Positions 1,788 through 24,225 of a DNA stretch of 46,422 bases are shown in pieces (the first letter of the stretch is position 1; each line of letters begins with the position of its first letter). This DNA is from Candidatus Omnitrophota bacterium (GTDB lineage: Bacteria; Omnitrophota; Omnitrophia; Omnitrophales; Danuiimicrobiaceae). The notes under the pieces were generated by a model, which saw only the letters and a program-made list of their open reading frames with translations, did not search any database and was not told the origin of the DNA. The stretch covers positions 1-46,422 of the forward strand of contig JACQQP010000172.1 of assembly GCA_016206945.1 (NCBI GenBank). The letters run 5' to 3'. A program made the position numbers and the translations under genes.

Positions 1788-3076
1788 CCTTGCGGAGCTA
1801 TTTCCGGTTGCTTGCAGAAGATCGGCCTCATGTTGGCCCTTGGGCGCCGTTTTGGAAGCCGATTCTGAAGGTCGCGTCGTTTGTGTATTTCTTGGGCCTT
1901 CAAATTCACCGTTTGCTTTATCACACGGGCATTTTAAAACAACACACATTGAGCCGTCCTGTTATTAGCGTGGGCAATGTGACGTGGGGAGGAACGGGGA
2001 AAACGCCTATCGTCGAATACGTCGCCCGTTTTTACCTCAACCGTCGCAAGACGCCACTCATTTTGGCGCGCGGCTACGGGCAGGATGAAAGTAAATTGCT
2101 TGCTCGTCAATTGCCTGAAGCACAGTTTGGCATCGGTAAAGACCGCTTGCGAGCGGCCGAGCAGGTTTTGGCCCGGCGCCCCGCCGACGTAATCATTCTA
2201 GATGATGGTTTTCAACATTGGCCGATTAAGCGCGATTTGGACATTGCGGTCATCAATGTCTTGAATCCATTTGGAAATTTGTCCCTCGTCCCCCGTGGAA
2301 TTTTAAGGGAGCCTCTTAAGGGTTTAAGACGAGCAGCGATTGTTGTATTGACCGATGTCAACTTGACGCCACGAAAGGAGCTTGAAGCCTTAAAGGTTAG
2401 AATTCGCGACTTTTCTCCGAAGGTGGAATTTATAGAAGCTTATCGCGAAGCACTTTTCTTCTATCGCCCTGGTTCGCGGGAGCGGCTTGCGGTAAATCGG
2501 CTCGAAGGGGAGCGGGTCACCAGTTTTTCTGGGATCGGAACGCCGCGCTCTTTCCTGATGCTTTTGAATCTGTTGGGGATTAAAACCGTGCGAAATTTCG
2601 AATTCACCGATCACCATAGTTTTACGGAAAAAGAACTCAATGAAATTCTTAGGGTGAAGGAATTAAGTGAATCCAAAGAAGTCATCACGACGGAAAAGGA
2701 TTATTTACGTTGCGAAGAACCGGTCAGGAGAATTGTGAAACCTCTTGTATTGAAATCCCGTTTGCGCCTGACTACCGGAGAAGGACTTCTTCACCAATTT
2801 TTGGGGCACTTTGCAGGTTCGTCTTTATCTCAAGCTTACTCGAGCGGTGAGGGCGAATCTGGGAAACCCAGCTTCAATTCGGGAAGAAAGTTTCATCGAA
2901 GGAGGCGGGATTTTTCGAGCAGGGGAAGTGCCTCTCGTGAAAAAACCATCTTGCAAGATGTAGCCAGGCAAGATCCATTGAAAGAGACGGAAGTAAAAAA
3001 AGGGGTTAACGAAGCCGGTCGCGCAAAAAATGATATGCCGCCAGAAGCTTTGGGGCGGGAGACGCCAAATGTTTGA
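1784..3076 (+). CDS. lpxK: Tetraacyldisaccharide 4'-kinase with a ~85-aa low-complexity C-terminal tail
   Basis: The P-loop VGNVTWGGTGKTP and the ARGYG and ILDDGFQHW motifs identify LpxK. The core ends near residue 345. The tail is Ser/Arg/Gly/Lys/Glu-rich. Confidence 0.9.
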   Translation: MTLRSYFRLLAEDRPHVGPWAPFWKPILKVASFVYFLGLQIHRLLYHTGILKQHTLSRPVISVGNVTWGGTGKTPIVEYVARFYLNRRKTPLILARGYGQDESKLLARQLPEAQFGIGKDRLRAAEQVLARRPADVIILDDGFQHWPIKRDLDIAVINVLNPFGNLSLVPRGILREPLKGLRRAAIVVLTDVNLTPRKELEALKVRIRDFSPKVEFIEAYREALFFYRPGSRERLAVNRLEGERVTSFSGIGTPRSFLMLLNLLGIKTVRNFEFTDHHSFTEKELNEILRVKELSESKEVITTEKDYLRCEEPVRRIVKPLVLKSRLRLTTGEGLLHQFLGHFAGSSLSQAYSSGEGESGKPSFNSGRKFHRRRRDFSSRGSASREKTILQDVARQDPLKETEVKKGVNEAGRAKNDMPPEALGRETPNV

Positions 3077-5018
3077 TTGGCTTGGAGTTTGGCTGGTTCG
3101 AGGTTTGAGTCAAATGTTGCAGGCTATGCCGCTTGATACGGGTCTTTTTCTGGGTCGTGTCGTTGGCGTTTTCCTCGCAAAGACCCACCGTCGTCGTCAA
3201 CTTGCGTATGCGAACTTGAAGGCGGCTTTCGGAGGCCGTTATAGCGCGAGGGAACGTAAGGGAATTGTCCAAAGCGTTTTTCAGAATTTGGCGCAGAATG
3301 TTGTAGAAACGCTCCGCTTTCCGAAAATGAACAAACCGTATTTGGAACGTTACATCGAGGTAGAACATCGGGAACGTTACGAAGAGCTCATTCGGGGAAA
3401 CCATGGAACGGTTCTGATTACACCCCATTTCGGTAACTGGGAGCTTTCCCAAGTCCTTTCCGCGCTGGTTGGAAAGCCTCTGTATGTTTTGGCTCGCGAG
3501 CAGAAGCACAGCCGCTTGGACAATTTTTTAAATGAGCTGCGTTCGGTACATGGTTCTATTTCCATTCGAAGAGGGGGTGGGGTTCGTAATTTGATTCGCG
3601 AACTCCAAAAAGGCGGCACGGTGGGTGTGCTTGGAGACCTTTCAGGCGGGCGCTCAGGTACAGTCGTTCGATTCTTCGGTCGGAAAACCACAGCCCCTTC
3701 CGGAATTTTCCAAATTGCGAGAAAGACCCGTTCCGTGATCCTTCCGTGTTTTATGGTCCGATTGGAAGCAGGGCGGCACCGTGTTTTTGTGGAGCAGCCT
3801 CTCGCCATGGGCGATCCGATAAATAAAACGCTTCGTCTTCAGGAGGACATTCAAAATTATTATCATTTGCTTGAAAACTGGATTACGGATCATCCCGATC
3901 AGTGGTTTTGGGTTTATAAGCGCTGGAAACATTGTTTTACGAAGCGGATCTTAGTTCTTCGCGATGAACGTCGTGGGCACAGCAATCAATCAGAGGCGAT
4001 TGCCCGCGAATTTGAGCGGCTTCATCATACAGGCGGAAGGAGCTATGAATTTGAATTCCAATATGTGGATGTCCGATTCAAAAGCGATTGGTGCAGAAAG
4101 TTATTTTTTCTGTTCGCATTTTTGATTCGCCCTTTCGCTCAAGGAAATCTGAGCTTTCTCGATTTTTTCTTGAAGCCGGAATGTGCTCAGGCTTGTAGCG
4201 CGAGCCATGCGGACATTATTATTTCTGCGGGTTCAAGCCTTGCTCCATTGAATCTTCTGCTCAAAAAAGAAAACCTGGCCCAATCGATTGTGGTGATGAA
4301 GCCTTCCTTTCCTTATCTCTGGCATTTTTTCGATCTTTTAATCGTTCCGGCCCACGATGCGTTGCCCAAGCGCGCCCGTAACATCATTCGGACTTGGGTC
4401 ACGCCTTCTCGAGTAGATCAGGATTTACTTCAAGCTTCCGCTCGGGAATTGAGGAAGGTTGCGCATTTGAGCTCAAATGGTGCAAGACGAATCGGCGTTT
4501 TTATCGGTGGGGATACAAAATCATACCGTTTTCATCCCGGCGATTTTCGCAAATGGCTGATCACATTGAAAAAGTGCGCGGAAGAATCCAATTTTGAACT
4601 GTTAATCACCACCTCAAGAAGGACCGATCCTGAAATTAGTTCGGTGGTCAAGGAGGAGCTTGGGCAACATCCGTTGACGAAACTTTTGGTGATTGCCAAT
4701 GAGTTCAACTTACAGAACGTCACCTATGGCATGCTCGCTCTCACGGACATCGTGCTCGTCACAGAAGATAGCATTTCCATGATTTCTGATGCGGTGAGCG
4801 CTGGGAAAACTGTTTTGGTGATCGAGGTAGGCAATGGAAAGCTACCCAAAAAACACAGCCGATTTCGCGAATCGCTGGAGTCGAATGCTTTAGTCAACCG
4901 GGCGGATGCCTCGAGCTTTCGAGCCAAATTATCCTCTGTGAGTACTGGGGCGAATGGGAGTGTTAGGGAGCGTCAATCCCAACTCATACAAGAGGCGCTT
5001 CGGAAGTTGATATGTTGA
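3069..5018 (+). CDS. Fusion of a lipid A late acyltransferase (LpxL/HtrB family) with an ELM1/GtrOC1-like (DUF1022) domain
   Basis: The N-terminal half has the ITPHFGNWE catalytic motif of the Lip_A_acyltrans family. The C-terminal half has FDLLIVPAHD, VFIGGDTKSY, ITTSRRT and VTEDSISMISDA, as I recall for the ELM1/GtrOC1 family. I chose the start at ATG 3069 (ATGTTTGA overlaps the lpxK stop). The track start 3030 is an alternative. Confidence 0.8.
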   Translation: MFDWLGVWLVRGLSQMLQAMPLDTGLFLGRVVGVFLAKTHRRRQLAYANLKAAFGGRYSARERKGIVQSVFQNLAQNVVETLRFPKMNKPYLERYIEVEHRERYEELIRGNHGTVLITPHFGNWELSQVLSALVGKPLYVLAREQKHSRLDNFLNELRSVHGSISIRRGGGVRNLIRELQKGGTVGVLGDLSGGRSGTVVRFFGRKTTAPSGIFQIARKTRSVILPCFMVRLEAGRHRVFVEQPLAMGDPINKTLRLQEDIQNYYHLLENWITDHPDQWFWVYKRWKHCFTKRILVLRDERRGHSNQSEAIAREFERLHHTGGRSYEFEFQYVDVRFKSDWCRKLFFLFAFLIRPFAQGNLSFLDFFLKPECAQACSASHADIIISAGSSLAPLNLLLKKENLAQSIVVMKPSFPYLWHFFDLLIVPAHDALPKRARNIIRTWVTPSRVDQDLLQASARELRKVAHLSSNGARRIGVFIGGDTKSYRFHPGDFRKWLITLKKCAEESNFELLITTSRRTDPEISSVVKEELGQHPLTKLLVIANEFNLQNVTYGMLALTDIVLVTEDSISMISDAVSAGKTVLVIEVGNGKLPKKHSRFRESLESNALVNRADASSFRAKLSSVSTGANGSVRERQSQLIQEALRKLIC

Positions 5019-7156
5019 GAATCGCGCAGATTTTACCTGCACTCAATGTGGGTGGAGTTGAGACGGGCACCGTTGATTTAGCCAAGGCGCTGAAGAAACG
5101 GGGTGACGAGCCTTTTGTGATCTCAAATGGGGGACCTTTGGTGGATGAGCTTGTTAAAGCGGGGATTTCTCATTTGACACTCCCCGTACATCGTAAGTCC
5201 CTTACCTCTCTTTCCTTAGTACGCCAAATTCAGGCATTTATTGAACGGGAGCGTATTGATATCCTTCATGCGAGGAGTCGCATTCCCGCTTGGCTCGCCT
5301 ATCTCGCCGTGAGGCGAACCAATTGTGACTTCGTGACGACCTGTCACGGTTATTACTCTAAACATTTTTTCAGCCGTGTCATGGGATGGGGAAAAAAGGT
5401 GATCGTGATTTCTCATTCCATTGGACGGCGGATGATTGACGATTTTGGCGTGCCTCCCGAACGCATTCGATTAATTCATCGAGGTGTCGATCTCGCCCAT
5501 TACCCTTTTTCGGCCGACAAATACAAGAAGCCGAAATCAGGACCGTTTCGTATTATTAATGTTGGGCGAATCACACCCATTAAAGGTCATGGAGATTTTA
5601 TCCGGGCGGTTCATCTTCTTTCAAAACGAATTCACAATTTAGAAGTTTCAATCGTGGGCACGCCTGATGACGATAAGGTTTCCTATTTCCGCAATTTAAA
5701 ACTGATGGTCGAAAGGCTGGGCTTGGGATCGCAGGTGAAGTTTTTAGGAACTCGCCGTGACGTGCCCCAACTCCTGCAATCAGCAGACCTCCTGGTTCTT
5801 CCTTCCAGAATTCCCGAGGCCTTCGGGCGTGTTTTGATTGAGGCGGGTGCAGTAGGAACGGTGGCGATCGCCTCTCGAATCGGGGGGATTTTGGATGTCA
5901 TTGATGAAGGTGAAAACGGTCTTTTGTTTTCCCCAGAGAATTTTGAGGAGATGGCGACTTTGATGGAGAAGATTTTGTTGGACCGCTTGCTCGCGAGAAA
6001 ATTATCTTCCAATCTTCGCAGGAAAGTAGAGCATGAATTTTCGCTCGATCAAATGGTTGAGAAAACGAGTGACGTTTATCGGGAAGTGAAACAGCAAAAA
6101 CGAATTTTGATTACGAAGCTGGGCGCTGTGGGTGATTTGGTACTTGCGACTCCGAGTTTTAGAATGGTGAGAAAACGTTTTCCAAACGCACATATTTCGC
6201 TTTTGGTGGATCCAAAATTGATTCCCTTGGTCCAACGTTGTCCCTATTTTGATGAGATCATTGCCTACAATCGTTCCCACTACTCAGATCAGTGGCAGCG
6301 TTTGTTTAAGTTGAGTAAACGGTTGAGACGATGGGGTTTTGATCTATCGATCGACTTCCAGAACAATTGGAGAACCCATGCGCTTGCGTTCTTAGCAGGC
6401 GTTCCAAAGCGGTATGGTTATAAAAGGGGAATCGCTGGTTTCCTGCTCACTCACCCCGTCGTCTTTTGGGACAGAAGTCTCAGTCCTGTGGAGCATCAAT
6501 TTCAAGTGCTCAAAAGGGCTGGAGTCATCCAATTTGAGAATGCGATCGAACTTTGGCCGGATTCAGAAGCGGATGCTCACATATCAAAACAACTGAGAGA
6601 AGCAAAAAATGGTGCGGCCCCTATTCGCATCGGATTGGTTTTAGGGGCTAGTCCACGCTGGCCAACGAAACAGTGGCCTGTGGAACGTTTTGTGGAACTG
6701 TCCAAGCGCTTAAGGGACGAATTGGATTGTCAGATTGTCTTGATCGGGCGAGAAGAAGACGAGAGTCTGGCACGTGTGTTTAAGCGAGATCATCTAAAGG
6801 GCATTCTCAACTTGACGGGAAAAACGAGTCTGCCGCAATTGGTCAGCCTCGTTAAACAACTTGATCTTTTGGTAACCGGGGACACGGCGCCCCTGCATAT
6901 GGCAAGTGCGTTCGATACAAAAACGGTCGCTTTATTTGGTCCCACAGAACCCAAACGTCATATGCCGCCGGGAGAGGGCCATATCGCTCTTGTGAAACGG
7001 ATTCCCTGTCAGCCTTGCTACAGCGGAACGTGCCGAAATTCGATAAAGCTCCTTTGCCTCAAGGAAATTAGTGTGGACGAAGTTTTTGAAACGATTAAAC
7101 AACAACTTCAGTTGGCAGGGGCTCGGCCTCTCGGCTCAAGCCAGGTGATGGGATAA
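5012..7156 (+). CDS. Fusion of a GT4 glycosyltransferase (N-terminal) with a GT9 heptosyltransferase-family domain (C-terminal)
   Basis: Residues 1-360 look like group-1 GT (GGVETGTVDLAKAL, EAFGRVLIEAGAVGT, ENGLLF). From residue ~365 the protein shows GT9 signatures: KRILITKLGAVGDLVLATPSF, TGDTAPLHMASA and LFGPT. Confidence 0.85.
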   Translation: MLRIAQILPALNVGGVETGTVDLAKALKKRGDEPFVISNGGPLVDELVKAGISHLTLPVHRKSLTSLSLVRQIQAFIERERIDILHARSRIPAWLAYLAVRRTNCDFVTTCHGYYSKHFFSRVMGWGKKVIVISHSIGRRMIDDFGVPPERIRLIHRGVDLAHYPFSADKYKKPKSGPFRIINVGRITPIKGHGDFIRAVHLLSKRIHNLEVSIVGTPDDDKVSYFRNLKLMVERLGLGSQVKFLGTRRDVPQLLQSADLLVLPSRIPEAFGRVLIEAGAVGTVAIASRIGGILDVIDEGENGLLFSPENFEEMATLMEKILLDRLLARKLSSNLRRKVEHEFSLDQMVEKTSDVYREVKQQKRILITKLGAVGDLVLATPSFRMVRKRFPNAHISLLVDPKLIPLVQRCPYFDEIIAYNRSHYSDQWQRLFKLSKRLRRWGFDLSIDFQNNWRTHALAFLAGVPKRYGYKRGIAGFLLTHPVVFWDRSLSPVEHQFQVLKRAGVIQFENAIELWPDSEADAHISKQLREAKNGAAPIRIGLVLGASPRWPTKQWPVERFVELSKRLRDELDCQIVLIGREEDESLARVFKRDHLKGILNLTGKTSLPQLVSLVKQLDLLVTGDTAPLHMASAFDTKTVALFGPTEPKRHMPPGEGHIALVKRIPCQPCYSGTCRNSIKLLCLKEISVDEVFETIKQQLQLAGARPLGSSQVMG

Positions 7157-18404: not shown

Positions 18405-19345
18405 GCAAGACAAGGAAACACCGATTTCTGCTCTACCTTGGTCTTGAAGTGATCAGACACATTGTCTTGGTGCTGCCAAGGTGGCTCAATTTGGCGATCG
18501 CGCGAGCTCTTGGCTTTGCAACCTTCTGGGTTCTTCCCAAGGAACGAGCCAAGACGGTGCGCCATTTGAAGGAAGCTTTTGGCGATGAAAAAACTGAGAG
18601 CGAACTTCGGAAAATCGGCGAGAAGGTTTTTATTCATTTGACTCAGTCTGCAATTGACGTCCTTTGTTTCCCGCGGCTCAATCGTAAGCGCGTAGAGCGC
18701 CTTGTTGATTTGGAGGGCGGCACTGAAAGGCTAGATCGTGCGCTGGCGCGCGGAAATGGCGTGATCGCATTGACAGGTCACATTGGAAACTGGGAACTCT
18801 TGGCTTCGTATTTTCGATTTCTGGGCTATCCAGGACGCTTGGTAGGTCGAAGGATTTATTACGAGCGGTTCGATCAGGTACTAGTTTCGCTTAGAAAGAG
18901 TGCTCTTGTCTCGACCCTTTATCGGGATGAATCTCCACGCCAGGTCTTGGCCGAACTTCGAGCGAACCATGTCGTGGGAATGTCTGCCGACCAGGACATT
19001 GATAGCGTGGAGGGAGTTTTTGTTCCTTTTTTTGGAAAATGGGCTTGGACACCGACAGGTCCAGCAAAAATCGCATTGGCCAGCGGGGCAGCTATTGTTC
19101 CAGCCTTTATGCTTCACGATCGGAATCGATACCGATTATTCATTGAAGAACCTATTTGGCCCGTTGAAAGCGTTTCAAAGGAAAAAGCGATCGGCATGAT
19201 GACGGAGGCTTGGTCTCGAGTCGTTGAAAGTTACATTCGACGTTATCCAGATCAATGGGTTTGGATGCACCGCCGCTGGAAAACCCAGGCGGACGTTGCC
19301 GATCGCTTTAGGGATGCATCAGAACTACAAGAAGTAAAGTTATGA
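18401..19345 (+). CDS. Lipid A biosynthesis late acyltransferase (LpxL/HtrB family)
   Basis: The LTGHIGNWE catalytic motif and the RYPDQWVWMHRRWK C-terminal motif are present. The GTG start overlaps the kdsD stop (GTGTGA). Confidence 0.85.
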   Translation: MSKTRKHRFLLYLGLEVIRHIVLVLPRWLNLAIARALGFATFWVLPKERAKTVRHLKEAFGDEKTESELRKIGEKVFIHLTQSAIDVLCFPRLNRKRVERLVDLEGGTERLDRALARGNGVIALTGHIGNWELLASYFRFLGYPGRLVGRRIYYERFDQVLVSLRKSALVSTLYRDESPRQVLAELRANHVVGMSADQDIDSVEGVFVPFFGKWAWTPTGPAKIALASGAAIVPAFMLHDRNRYRLFIEEPIWPVESVSKEKAIGMMTEAWSRVVESYIRRYPDQWVWMHRRWKTQADVADRFRDASELQEVKL

Positions 19346-19467
19346 TCCCATCTGAAAGAAGAGAACAGAGAACGGTGTACAGAGTACAGAAGATTAGGTC
19401 CCGTTCTTTTTTACTCTGTTCTCTGTACTCTGTTCTCTGTACTCTGTTTCTAGAGGTGATGGGATGA
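19342..19467 (+). repeat. SD-box cassette C (family I, 126 nt) with a 41-codon ATGA-to-ATGA mini-ORF
   Basis: ATG 19342 overlaps the upstream stop (ATGA), and it ends GAGGTGATGGGATGA. The interior has heptamer arrays, ACAGAGW on one arm (about 19364-19391) and the complementary WCTCTGT x5 (19413-19447). It aligns without gaps, at about 80% identity, with 22856-22981. Confidence 0.8.
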
Positions 19468-19595
19468 TCCCAACCACCTGTTTTTCTCGCGTTTCATTCA
19501 GGTGGTTGAACTTTGAAACGCGAGAATTTCTTTCAGAAATTAAAGGCCGCATTAACTTAAAACGAGGCGTTCTTTTAAAACAGGTGGTGGGATGA
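19464..19595 (+). repeat. SD-box cassette F (family III-like, 132 nt) with a 43-codon ATGA-to-ATGA mini-ORF
   Basis: It starts ATGATCCCAACCACCTGTTT and ends AAACAGGTGGTGGGATGA. ATG 19464 overlaps the stop of cassette C, and its own TGA overlaps the lptC ATG 19592. Interleaved inverted repeats are present: 19471-80/19499-508 and 19484-96/19514-26. Confidence 0.65.
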
Positions 19596-21793: not shown

Positions 21794-22738
21794 ATGCCAT
21801 ATCTTTCCGTACAGAACTTTTTTGATGGAATGAGGGAGCAGCTGAAGTTAAGCTTGCTTACCCCGACGGTTCCCTTAACTCGTAAGATTCGTTCGCCGGA
21901 AATTCATCGGCCCGGCCTCGCTTTTTCTGGTTTTTACGATTATTTTGCTTTTGATTGTGTGCAGATTCTTGGCACGACAGAAATTGGTTTTTTAAAAAAA
22001 TTGTTGGGTCCCGCGCGCGCCCGGAATTTAAAACGATTCTTCTCCTATCGGATTCCTTGCGTCATTGTTTCGAAACAGCAATCCGTCCCGCGTGATTTTT
22101 TGGAACAGGCCATTGAGGCGGCCATTCCTGTTCTGCGTTCACCCTTTCGAACCGCGCGCGTAGCAAGTCAAGTGACGCTTTTCATTGAAGAAGCAAATGC
22201 CCCCGAGACGAGCATTCACGCAACGCTCGTGGATGTGTATGGAGTGGGTGCGCTCCTTCTTGGGAAAAGTGGTGTGGGGAAATCGGAATGTGCGCTTGAG
22301 CTTGTGGAAAGGGGCCACCGCTTAGTCGCAGACGATATGGTTGAAATTCGCGTAGAAAATCGGATTCTTATGGGACGGTCGAATCGGATTCTACATCATC
22401 ACATGGAAATTAGGGGGCTCGGAATCATCGACGTTCGCGCCATCTTTGGGGTCGGTTCCGTTCGGAATTCTAAACGGATCACTTTAGCGGTAACGCTCGA
22501 ACATTGGAAAAAAGAACGTGAGTATGAACGGCTTGGTCTTGAAGATAGGATGTATGAGCTCTTGGGCATCAAGATACCGCACCTGATCATCCCCGTCCGT
22601 CCCGGCCGTAACATCCCTATATTGGTTGAAACGGCAGCTTTGACTCAGCGGCTCAGTACGATGGGTGCTCATCCAGCAAAGGAATTTAATCAGAAGTTAA
22701 TTGACACGATGCGCGTTTCCAAACCGGAGACAGATTAA
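21794..22738 (+). CDS. hprK: HPr kinase/phosphorylase
   Basis: The P-loop GKSGVGKSECALEL, the LVADD motif and the EIRGLGIIDV signature are present. Confidence 0.9.
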   Translation: MPYLSVQNFFDGMREQLKLSLLTPTVPLTRKIRSPEIHRPGLAFSGFYDYFAFDCVQILGTTEIGFLKKLLGPARARNLKRFFSYRIPCVIVSKQQSVPRDFLEQAIEAAIPVLRSPFRTARVASQVTLFIEEANAPETSIHATLVDVYGVGALLLGKSGVGKSECALELVERGHRLVADDMVEIRVENRILMGRSNRILHHHMEIRGLGIIDVRAIFGVGSVRNSKRITLAVTLEHWKKEREYERLGLEDRMYELLGIKIPHLIIPVRPGRNIPILVETAALTQRLSTMGAHPAKEFNQKLIDTMRVSKPETD

Positions 22739-22741
22739 TTG

Positions 22742-22859
22742 ATGATTCCATCACCTGTTTGCAAAGAGCGCGCATTTGGTTCTAAACATCACGCGCTCTT
22801 TGATCCTTTAAGAAAAGATCTCGCCACAACGTGGCGAGACAAACAGGTGATTGGGATGA
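22742..22859 (+). repeat. SD-box cassette E (family III-like, 118 nt)
   Basis: It starts ATGATTCCATCACCTGTTT and ends AAACAGGTGATTGGGATGA. The 13-bp terminal inverted repeat is interrupted by one extra T. Internal hairpins lie at 22762-72/22792-802 (11 bp) and 22819-25/22833-39 (7 bp). Confidence 0.65.
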
Positions 22860-22981
22860 TCCCATCTGAAAGAAGAGAACAGAGTACAGAGTACAGAGAA
22901 CAGAAGGTGAGTTTCCATTCTTTTTTACTCTGTTCTCTGTCATCAGTACTCTGTAATGTTTTCCTTCAGGTGGTGACATGA
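22856..22981 (+). repeat. SD-box cassette D (family I, 126 nt)
   Basis: It has the same length and frame as 19342-19467. It encodes MIPSERREQSTEYREQKVSFHSFLLCSLSSVLCNVFLQVVT, and its TGA overlaps the yvcK-like ATG 22978. Because of the extra T in cassette E, E and D read as a single 79-codon ORF. Confidence 0.8.
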
Positions 22982-24225
22982 AGTTTTTCCGATGGCTTTA
23001 TCCAGGAATCGGGATTAAACGATGGGTCGTTTTGGCCGCTTTTGGACTTGGCATCATGGTGATTGTGGGCCTTTCTGCGGTGAAGACGATTGCACAACAC
23101 AGCGTCCTTTTGGCAAGTTTTGCCACCGCTTTTCTCATTTTTGGAATTTTTTTGGTTTACACGTCACTTAAAAATGTGGTTCGCATTTTCGTTCGTGCAC
23201 TTATGCCAGAGCCTGCGGAAGACTTGGCGAACATTGTGTATCAAAGTCGAAAGCGGGATTTTCTTGCTCGTGGACCTCGCGTGGTCACCATTGGCGGCGG
23301 CACCGGTTTGAGCGTTCTTCTCCAAGGAATTAAGGCCTATACTAATAACGTCACTGCCGTTGTCACCGTGACCGATACGGGCGGGAGTTCGGGGCGCCTG
23401 CGCGATGAGCTGGATATTCTGCCGCCGGGCGATATTCGCAACTGTCTTGTGGCGCTTGCCGATGCAGAACCGCTGATCCGGAACCTGTTTCAATATCGTT
23501 TTGAAGAGGGAGAAGGTCTTAAAGGACACAGTTTTGGAAACTTGTTCATCACGGCACTTTCCATGGTAACGGGTGACTTTGAAAAAGCGATCCGCGAATC
23601 GAGCAAGGTGCTTGCCATTCGGGGAAGAGTGTTGCCATCCACTCTGGATAAAGTAACGCTCGTAGGCGAATTTACCGATGGGACAACGGCTGAAGGAGAA
23701 ACAAATATCACGGACACAAGGAAACCGCTGAAGCAGATTTCGCTTCGCCCTGCCAATTGTCGCGCTGCAGACGAGGCGTTGGAAGCGATTGAAAGTGCAG
23801 ATCTTGTGATCATGGGGCCAGGGAGTCTTTATACGAGCATTCTCCCTAATCTTTTGATCCAGGATGTTTCGAATGCCATCTTGGAATCGGATGCATACAA
23901 GATTTTCATTATCAATGCGATGACCCAACCTGGTGAAACAGAAGGTTACACCGCTTACGACCACCTCCGCGTTTTGATCAGCCATACGGATCCCGGCATT
24001 GTCGACGCCTGTTTTATCAATACCCAATCCATTCCCAAGGCAATCCTGGAACGTTATCGCGAAACCAATGCGTACCCGGTTGAGGCTGATGTCGCAAAGA
24101 TTCGGGAACAAGGGTATGAGGTCATTGGCTGTGAGATTTTGAAACTGGATTCGCAAGTGAGGCACGATCCGGTGAAACTGGCCAAGGTTATTTTGGATCA
24201 ATATTTTGAAGTCCTGAAGCGGTAA
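22978..24225 (+). CDS. YvcK/CofD-like (UPF0052, gluconeogenesis factor family) protein with an N-terminal two-TM extension
   Basis: The core motif is VVTIGGGTGLSVLLQGIK...VVTVTDTGGSSGRLRDE...PPGDIRNCLVALAD. Residues ~16-63 form two hydrophobic helices that I do not recall in typical ~320-aa YvcK proteins. Confidence 0.85.
   Translation: MKFFRWLYPGIGIKRWVVLAAFGLGIMVIVGLSAVKTIAQHSVLLASFATAFLIFGIFLVYTSLKNVVRIFVRALMPEPAEDLANIVYQSRKRDFLARGPRVVTIGGGTGLSVLLQGIKAYTNNVTAVVTVTDTGGSSGRLRDELDILPPGDIRNCLVALADAEPLIRNLFQYRFEEGEGLKGHSFGNLFITALSMVTGDFEKAIRESSKVLAIRGRVLPSTLDKVTLVGEFTDGTTAEGETNITDTRKPLKQISLRPANCRAADEALEAIESADLVIMGPGSLYTSILPNLLIQDVSNAILESDAYKIFIINAMTQPGETEGYTAYDHLRVLISHTDPGIVDACFINTQSIPKAILERYRETNAYPVEADVAKIREQGYEVIGCEILKLDSQVRHDPVKLAKVILDQYFEVLKR

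Follow-up and report, generated by a model that had tools for sequence, protein, structure and literature searches.

A one-base variant of a start-codon hairpin cassette runs in frame into a second cassette between hprK and yvcK of a Candidatus Omnitrophota bacterium

The genes hprK and yvcK of a Candidatus Omnitrophota bacterium are separated by two stacked hairpin cassettes, the first of which carries a surplus T in its right end, and the locus raises the question of what such cassettes are and how a frame-shifting base can be accommodated ahead of yvcK. We analyzed a window of 46,422 nucleotides, contig JACQQP010000172.1 (here C147) of the metagenome-assembled genome GCA_016206945.1 (G000; 1.34 Mb in 189 contigs, 47% GC), whose placement in Candidatus Omnitrophota is supported by the relatives of its YvcK; coordinates given without a contig name are those of the window. 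The hprK gene (HPr kinase/phosphorylase; 21794-22738, plus strand) ends in a TAA at 22736-22738, as judged from the list of open reading frames (ORFs) and from the orthologous gene ends in relatives, and the yvcK-family gene occupies 22978-24225 on the same strand. The spacer of 239 nt consists of two units that each run from ATGA to ATGA: cassette E (22742-22859, plus strand), which measures 115 nt from ATG to TGA (3n+1), followed by cassette D (22856-22981, plus strand), a family I member that forms a 126-nt long hairpin of heptamer arrays and holds a 41-codon mini-ORF. The right box of D is degenerate (CAGGTGGTGACATGA), and its right ATG is the yvcK start codon, which is thus rebuilt by the end of the cassette. 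The MKFF start of YvcK is conserved in all relatives; in the window (22978-23277), as in each of them, it is followed by hydrophobic segments and then by the conserved GGGTG core.

The spacer was empty in six relatives (L002-L005, L036, and L044; 78-89% YvcK identity), which have 0-22 nt and a single ATGA at this site, the zero-length spacer of L004 being an ATGA overlap. These empty sites identify E and D as lineage-specific insertions. Another relative, L001, carries a single E-like cassette of 114 nt (about 2885-3003) where the window has E and D. L036 is empty at the hprK-yvcK site even though its YvcK identity equals that of L001, and the contrast between the occupied and the empty site suggests that this start codon was hit more than once, independently, or that the cassettes turn over. 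Most simply, the left ATG of E would be the original start codon of yvcK; the GGAGA at 22726-22730 is likely to be the native ribosome-binding site of that start, and the original spacer, probably 3 nt long, was replaced by E and D. Some genomes of the genus and some belonging to three other genera contain many copies of the box AGGTGRTGGGATSA, most of the order having none, and the 14-mer box was not found in the relatives without the elements; judged from sequence, this patchy distribution fits a mobile element. When E was used as a DNA query against eight related genomes, only its inverted ends matched, so that the E subfamily is species-specific among the genomes examined.

Cassette E is bounded by ATGATTCCATCACCTGTTT (22742-22760) and AAACAGGTGATTGGGATGA (22841-22859, including the right ATGA at 22856-22859), in exact agreement with the termini given in a preliminary description of this DNA. 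Its left inverted end (ATTCCATCACCTGTTTG; 22745-22761), delimited from folds and paralog comparison, contains an anti-Shine-Dalgarno (anti-SD)-like CACCT and, by the same comparison, a private C>T change at 22747. It pairs, with one bulge, with the right inverted end (CAAACAGGTGATTGGGAT; 22840-22857), in which an SD-like AGGTGAT is followed by ATG, and the same ends are present in at least 59 elements. Inside these ends lie the two hairpins that had been noted earlier, both of them perfect. Hairpin 1 (22762-22802) has 11 bp (22762-22772/22792-22802; arms CAAAGAGCGCG and CGCGCTCTTTG) around a variable 19-nt loop, and hairpin 2 (22819-22839) has 7 bp (22819-22825/22833-22839), extendable to 9 bp (22819-22827/22831-22839; arms TCTCGCCAC and GTGGCGAGA, loop AAC), with compensatory changes in C41, C50, and L001. 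The predicted RNA fold of E (-56.6 kcal/mol, z = -9.5) comprises a 17-bp outer stem, formed from both ends, with the two hairpins inside; E and D together gave -114 kcal/mol (z = -10.6). Compensatory double changes were seen in 11 of 35 predicted base pairs of the E family. The extra T of the right box had been assigned to a TT at 22850-22851; the base is indeed there, but the doubled T occupies 22851-22852, one T in excess of GGTGATGGGA, where it stands out of the outer stem as a one-base bulge and causes a +1 shift of frame. Without it, positions 22846-22859 would read GGTGATGGGATGA.

The ends of E mark a superfamily, with inverted ends TCCCAYCACCT / AGGTGRTGGGA and TGA flanks, of which the 1.34-Mb genome holds about 60-85 copies. 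The consensus box AGGTGATGGGATGA occurred 46 times exactly and 164 times with up to two mismatches, and seven near-matches were found in the window versus 0.1 expected. A census of TGA..TGA elements with ends NTGA-TCCCA(A)YCACC ... GGTGRT(T)GGGA-TGA yielded 59 members in 19 interior-sequence clusters. Flanking trinucleotides match (TGA/TGA in 59 copies, TAA/TAA in 8, mixed in 4), with the proviso that the TGA could belong to the element instead of being a target duplication and that the TAA-flanked copies may be separate families. In nearly all elements the right ATG is the start of a long ORF (100-700 codons) or of the next cassette, and in many the left TGA is the stop of a long ORF upstream. 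Their positions are thus those of start codons or ATGA stop/start overlaps, and they have the same orientation as the genes. The start codon is rebuilt at yvcK and by most elements genome-wide. Contigs were found to start or end inside family I cassettes (C73:1-100, C92:1-81, C117:1-76, C126:1-82, and C181:1-67), and because these repeats break the assembly, the copy numbers are lower bounds. Right boxes without a partner left box were also observed (C149 at about 4690-4710 on the reverse strand, and window positions 7139-7156 and 1770-1787), reading, for example, GAGGTGGTTGGGATGA directly after an upstream stop, or AGGTGATGGGATAA; these may be footprints or truncated cassettes. In one family I cassette (C44:13679-13804, minus strand), the asymmetries of the loop and arms show the interior to be inverted with respect to the other copies; the ATGA ends of this cassette retain the orientation of the gene, and its 41-codon frame is open in both orientations.

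Stacks in this genome are not tandem arrays of one unit. Cassettes E and D had been compared with the pair C and F at 19342-19595, on the view that E and F belong to one family and that the same two families are therefore stacked in opposite order at the two loci. The termini of E and F did prove near-identical on alignment, but only the inverted ends and about 4 nt (a TGTTT/AAACA extension) align; a blastn search with E did not match F, and the two fall into separate interior clusters, F in a 129-nt family and E in a family derived from the GIY-YIG element described below. With unrelated interiors in E and F, the claim of opposite order fails. The only homologs between the two loci are C and D (one family, 82.5% identity), and the stacks combine unrelated interiors, E with family I and C with F.

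A candidate source of the E-type cassettes is a 336-nt element on the minus strand of C138 (182-516), with the structure GTGA ... GTG ATG GGA TGA and a VMG-TGA right end, which is the sole long unit in the genome bounded by superfamily ends. Its frame, the only gene of the element, specifies a GIY-YIG domain protein of 111 aa (Pfam PF01541, 5.9e-15), whose closest solved relatives are UPF0213 proteins (1zg2, 1.2e-12; 1ywl) and SLX1. Two genomes of the genus contain units that are likewise exactly 336 nt long, share these ends, and encode proteins with 60-76% identity, and full-length matches (62-64%, at the protein level) were found in a genome of the same order (G012). The architecture of the C138 element is that of E: an inverted end, a stem CAAGAGCGCGC...GCGCGCTCTTG, a second short GC hairpin, and the other end. 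The loop of this stem, at the position of hairpin 1 in E, holds the nuclease core. The first 33 nt of E are identical to the C138 element at 27 positions, and the peptide ends of E (MIPSP..ERA and ..QV(M/I)G) resemble the nuclease termini. From these similarities, E-type cassettes, that of L001 among them, are best read as derivatives in which the hairpin-1 loop was lost. Small C138-like GIY-YIG ORFs, often in several copies, were seen in 37 of 41 genomes (that of the window and 40 related Omnitrophota), few of them matching all 111 residues including the MIPSP/QVMG termini. An IS5/Harbinger-type transposase was considered on account of the TNA-like flanks and was rejected, the GIY-YIG cassette being the only long element with these ends found in the genome. 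No known transposase was found with these elements, and the only protein of the C138 element is the GIY-YIG nuclease.

In-frame stops are strongly depleted in the cassettes, whose lengths are mostly 3n. Lengths of 3n were found in 21 of 30 cluster/length classes (binomial p = 4e-5), and across 2316 codons the frame of the left ATG contained 15 in-frame stops, versus 198 and 92 in the other two frames. In 42 of the 59 elements the internal ORF terminates within a 4-nt ATGA that it shares with the next start, and the fused frame of E and D does so as well (22978-22981); the right end of E itself has no such stop, owing to its extra T. An open frame is not obligatory, about 30% of the copies having a premature stop or a wrong length. 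These frame statistics suggest that the mini-ORFs are translated and coupled to the downstream gene. They bear on a quite unlikely alternative, in which the main role of the cassettes is cis-regulatory, as structured RNA or DNA (for example an mRNA stabilizer, an attenuator, or an SD-sequestering switch of yvcK), and the frame is a by-product passed on from the termini of the nuclease gene. Such a role would accord with the very stable folds, in which the SD-like right arm base-pairs with its anti-SD-like counterpart on the left, with the covariation of the stems, and with the resemblance of the N- and C-terminal codons of E to those of the GIY-YIG ORF (MIPSP...ERA, ...QVMG). The bias toward 3n, stop-free frames holds, though, across unrelated interiors (family I and the 135-nt, 129-nt, 90-nt, and other families), so that it is not simply inherited from the nuclease ORF, and a DNA hairpin serving mobility would be expected to covary just as much. 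A promoter and terminator scan revealed no excess, and Rfam yielded only sub-threshold chance matches for window positions 22500-23200, with no family above threshold. A cis-regulatory role would in any case be compatible with, rather than exclusive of, passage of ribosomes through the cassettes.

The extra T changes the reading of E. The TGA at 22857 is out of frame with the ATG at 22742 (22857-22742 = 115), whereas the ATG of D (22856) lies 114 nt, or 38 codons, downstream and in frame. Translation would thus read ...Q V I G M I P S... across the junction and continue into D, giving a fused ORF of 79 codons (38 from E and 41 from D; 22742-22981, plus strand) whose TGA (22979-22981) overlaps the yvcK ATG at 22978. 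This bears out the earlier proposal that the extra T bypasses the usual VMG-stop and fuses E to D: the ORF list shows one frame, and the 80-aa ORF reported at 22739-22981 is the same frame counted from an upstream TTG, with 79 codons from the ATG at 22742.

One could suppose that the T is a sequencing or assembly artifact in a short homopolymer and that E truly ends in a normal VMG-stop, since the site is a 2-base homopolymer in a repeat-rich, fragmented genome of 189 contigs. The same T was found, however, on two separately assembled contigs, making three loci in which an E-type cassette with the extra T precedes a family I cassette: C147 22742-22981 and, on the minus strand, C22 4786-5025 and C44 13679-13918. 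Each is exactly 240 nt long with an identical junction, GGTGATTGGGATGATCCCATCT, and an open 79-codon frame, which in C22 and C44 ends on the ATGA of a long downstream ORF just as it ends on that of yvcK in the window. The three E copies are 85-92% identical overall; those of C22 and C44 differ from that of the window at 18 and 9 other positions, respectively, and were therefore assembled independently. An equivalent extra T occurs in 12 of 78 right boxes of this genome, and the mirror-image extra A in 9 of 56 left boxes. The one close E copy that lacks the extra T (C115 4110-4226) terminates in the usual VMG-stop, and the cassette after it is of another kind, 90 nt long. On the strength of these sequence comparisons the extra T is almost certainly a genuine, inherited variant, and an artifact is highly improbable.

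It is equally hard to maintain that the 79-aa ORF is a genuine small protein with a function of its own, and we regard this as extremely unlikely. In its favor, the frame is ATG-initiated, lies close to an SD-like GGAGA, and is open in three paralogous loci. A search of 5.8 billion protein clusters with the fused product, for which conserved homologs had been named in the preliminary description as the more serious challenge, matched only the two paralogous E+D pairs of this same genome, and the E, D, and fused peptides gave no Pfam match. The variable sites among four close E copies are spread evenly over codon positions 1, 2, and 3 (9/8/7) and are clustered in the hairpin loops, the changes in stems being compensatory. 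Inversion of the family I half at C44 alters the peptide and leaves the frame open. The fused product is not a conserved protein; what is kept is the hairpin and, with it, an open frame terminating on ATGA.

Because the three loci share their length of exactly 240 nt, their junction, and their open 79-codon frame, E with its extra T and D might instead be one composite that moves as a unit, the T being a fixed internal feature rather than one filtered by selection. We consider this unlikely, since the similarities of the two halves are discordant and one half is inverted. The E of the window is 92% identical to that of C44 and only 85% to that of C22, whereas its D is only about 80% identical to the family I half of either; the family I half of C22 is 94% identical to the solo copy C, and the interior of the C44 half is inverted. 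The halves thus have different histories. The E(+T)/family I junction was absent from 40 related genomes and occurs only in the genome of the window. Metagenome scans with the right end of E, with or without the T, returned no matches, and a scan with a 20-mer spanning the hprK/E junction returned three, all on unrelated AT-rich contigs and therefore attributable to chance.

A fourth junction of this type, with an unrelated upstream cassette, also speaks against a fixed composite. At C153, a 94-nt cassette ending in GGTGGT-T-GGGA lies ahead of a family I cassette and reads through to the ATGA of the gene, so that all four junctions of any cassette to family I in this genome (4/4) carry the extra T and read through in this way. 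An independent +1 change at another position (GATG-T-GGATGA) was found at C11, where a 112-nt cassette ahead of a 117-nt cassette reads through to the ATGA. The next unit was another cassette for 6 of 9 cassettes of length 3n+1, versus 6 of 40 intact cassettes of length 3n (Fisher p = 0.004); if the E trio is treated as one the value is p = 0.03, and the independent events are few. As a counter-example, a 67-nt 3n+1 cassette at C152:5082-5150 (minus-strand coordinates) is fused in frame directly to a 270-codon ORF. Translation of that ORF from the left ATG would give it a 22-aa N-terminal extension. Filtering by a buffer cassette would, given C152, not be absolute.

We consider it probable that E is a non-autonomous, internally deleted relative of the 336-nt GIY-YIG element, seated on the yvcK start codon, and that its extra T fuses two relay frames with the link to yvcK kept. 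Elements of the superfamily lie exactly on NTGA start codons, with TGA on both sides. The left copy would keep the original ATG of the host as the start of the element's own stop-free frame, and the right inverted end (AGGTGRTGGGA + TGA) would rebuild an SD sequence and an ATG for the displaced gene, which the hairpin would pair with the anti-SD-like left arm. Ribosomes would start at the ATG at 22742, 3 nt past the hprK stop, translate 79 codons, melt both strong hairpins, terminate at the TGA overlapping the start codon of yvcK, and reinitiate there; only ribosomes translating from the original, unstructured start would open the hairpin and reach the ATGA. Because its one-base variant GGTGAT-T-GGGA makes the length of E 3n+1, the frame misses the usual ATGA and would run into that of D, leaving one stop/restart junction fewer and the relay unbroken. 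The extra T would be tolerated because a buffer cassette, and not the gene itself, comes after E; a 3n+1 copy abutting a gene would lengthen the protein at its N terminus and would tend to be lost.

A broader proposal is more tentative, and we regard it as less likely than not. The superfamily may represent an undescribed class of prokaryotic mobile elements whose sole enzyme is a stand-alone UPF0213/Slx1-like GIY-YIG nuclease, expressed from a hijacked host start codon, that would act on the hairpin or cruciform of its own ends and insert at NTGA starts. The +1 variants would then be favored in stacked arrays, where removal of a leaky stop/restart junction could restore expression of the displaced gene. 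Candidate substrates for the C138 nuclease are the junction GGGATGATCCC, the inverted ends, and the empty ATGA site. A GIY-YIG nuclease alone is not known to carry out transposition.

A literature search turned up no account of GIY-YIG hairpin elements on start codons in Omnitrophota, and the known systems each resemble them in part. The free-standing GIY-YIG homing endonuclease genes of phages (T4 seg) are, like the C138 element, small selfish genes wedged between conserved operon genes. The T4 Seg proteins are larger and have DNA-binding domains, and the seg genes are not known to have inverted ends or miniature derivatives or to reconstruct a start codon. In function, the closest analog is the mycobacterial interspersed repetitive unit (MIRU). 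MIRUs (Supply et al. 1997, cited through PMC12548453) are short, mobile-looking repeats on start codons whose ORF is joined to the gene of the host through a 4-nt overlap of the ATGA type, a coupling thought to render the insertion harmless. They consist of a single unit repeated directly in tandem (VNTR), lack long inverted ends and strong hairpins, and have no known associated nuclease gene. The Omnitrophota stacks differ in that they mix hairpin families and a GIY-YIG-bearing full-length form exists; the two have no sequence relationship, and the phylum is different.

In enzyme and repeat logic, the closest analog is the Ssn/NTS system. The Ssn proteins are small GIY-YIG ssDNA nucleases whose IS-like architecture was remarked on by the authors, and SsnA of Neisseria meningitidis, a single-domain GIY-YIG protein of about 100 aa, is encoded between dispersed NTS/SRM hairpin repeats (PMC11893778). 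C138 similarly encodes a 111-aa single-domain GIY-YIG protein with hairpin-forming ends on both sides, E itself having no gene. The SRM repeats, in contrast, are hairpins of about 30 nt that are not reported to lie on start codons, to hold mini-ORFs, or to rebuild a ribosome-binding site (PMC11893778), and Ssn is defined by CDD cd10448; the best solved relatives of the C138 nuclease are UPF0213 (1zg2) and SLX1. Bacterial MITEs and palindromic elements (Correia, ERIC, RUP, and the Rickettsia palindromic elements, RPEs), reviewed in PMC10969869, are likewise short, multicopy, and non-autonomous, with terminal inverted repeats and short flanking repeats, and some of them, the RPEs, are kept in frame with host ORFs (PMC10969869). 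The IS elements from which known MITEs descend, however, encode a transposase, and these MITEs do not target start codons (PMC10969869), whereas the Omnitrophota parent carries a GIY-YIG nuclease and not a known transposase. RPEs insert inside genes and join the protein, whereas the Omnitrophota element forms a separate relay ORF between genes.

For gene callers, such Omnitrophota loci mean spurious ORFs of 40-80 aa and possibly misplaced start codons. If ribosomes do relay through the cassettes as proposed, the locus is a natural mutagenesis experiment, in which a one-base change that would usually break a frame is harmless and recurs independently only where another cassette acts as a buffer, and it would provide comparative evidence for selection on ribosomes reaching the ATGA that precedes the gene. 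The architecture that E has in common with the 336-nt GIY-YIG element links the miniature cassettes directly to a candidate mobilizing enzyme. The 111-aa protein and its 118-nt substrate would form a tractable pair with which to ask whether a minimal GIY-YIG nuclease could drive transposon-like spread, a question that has been raised for Ssn/NTS in Neisseria as well.
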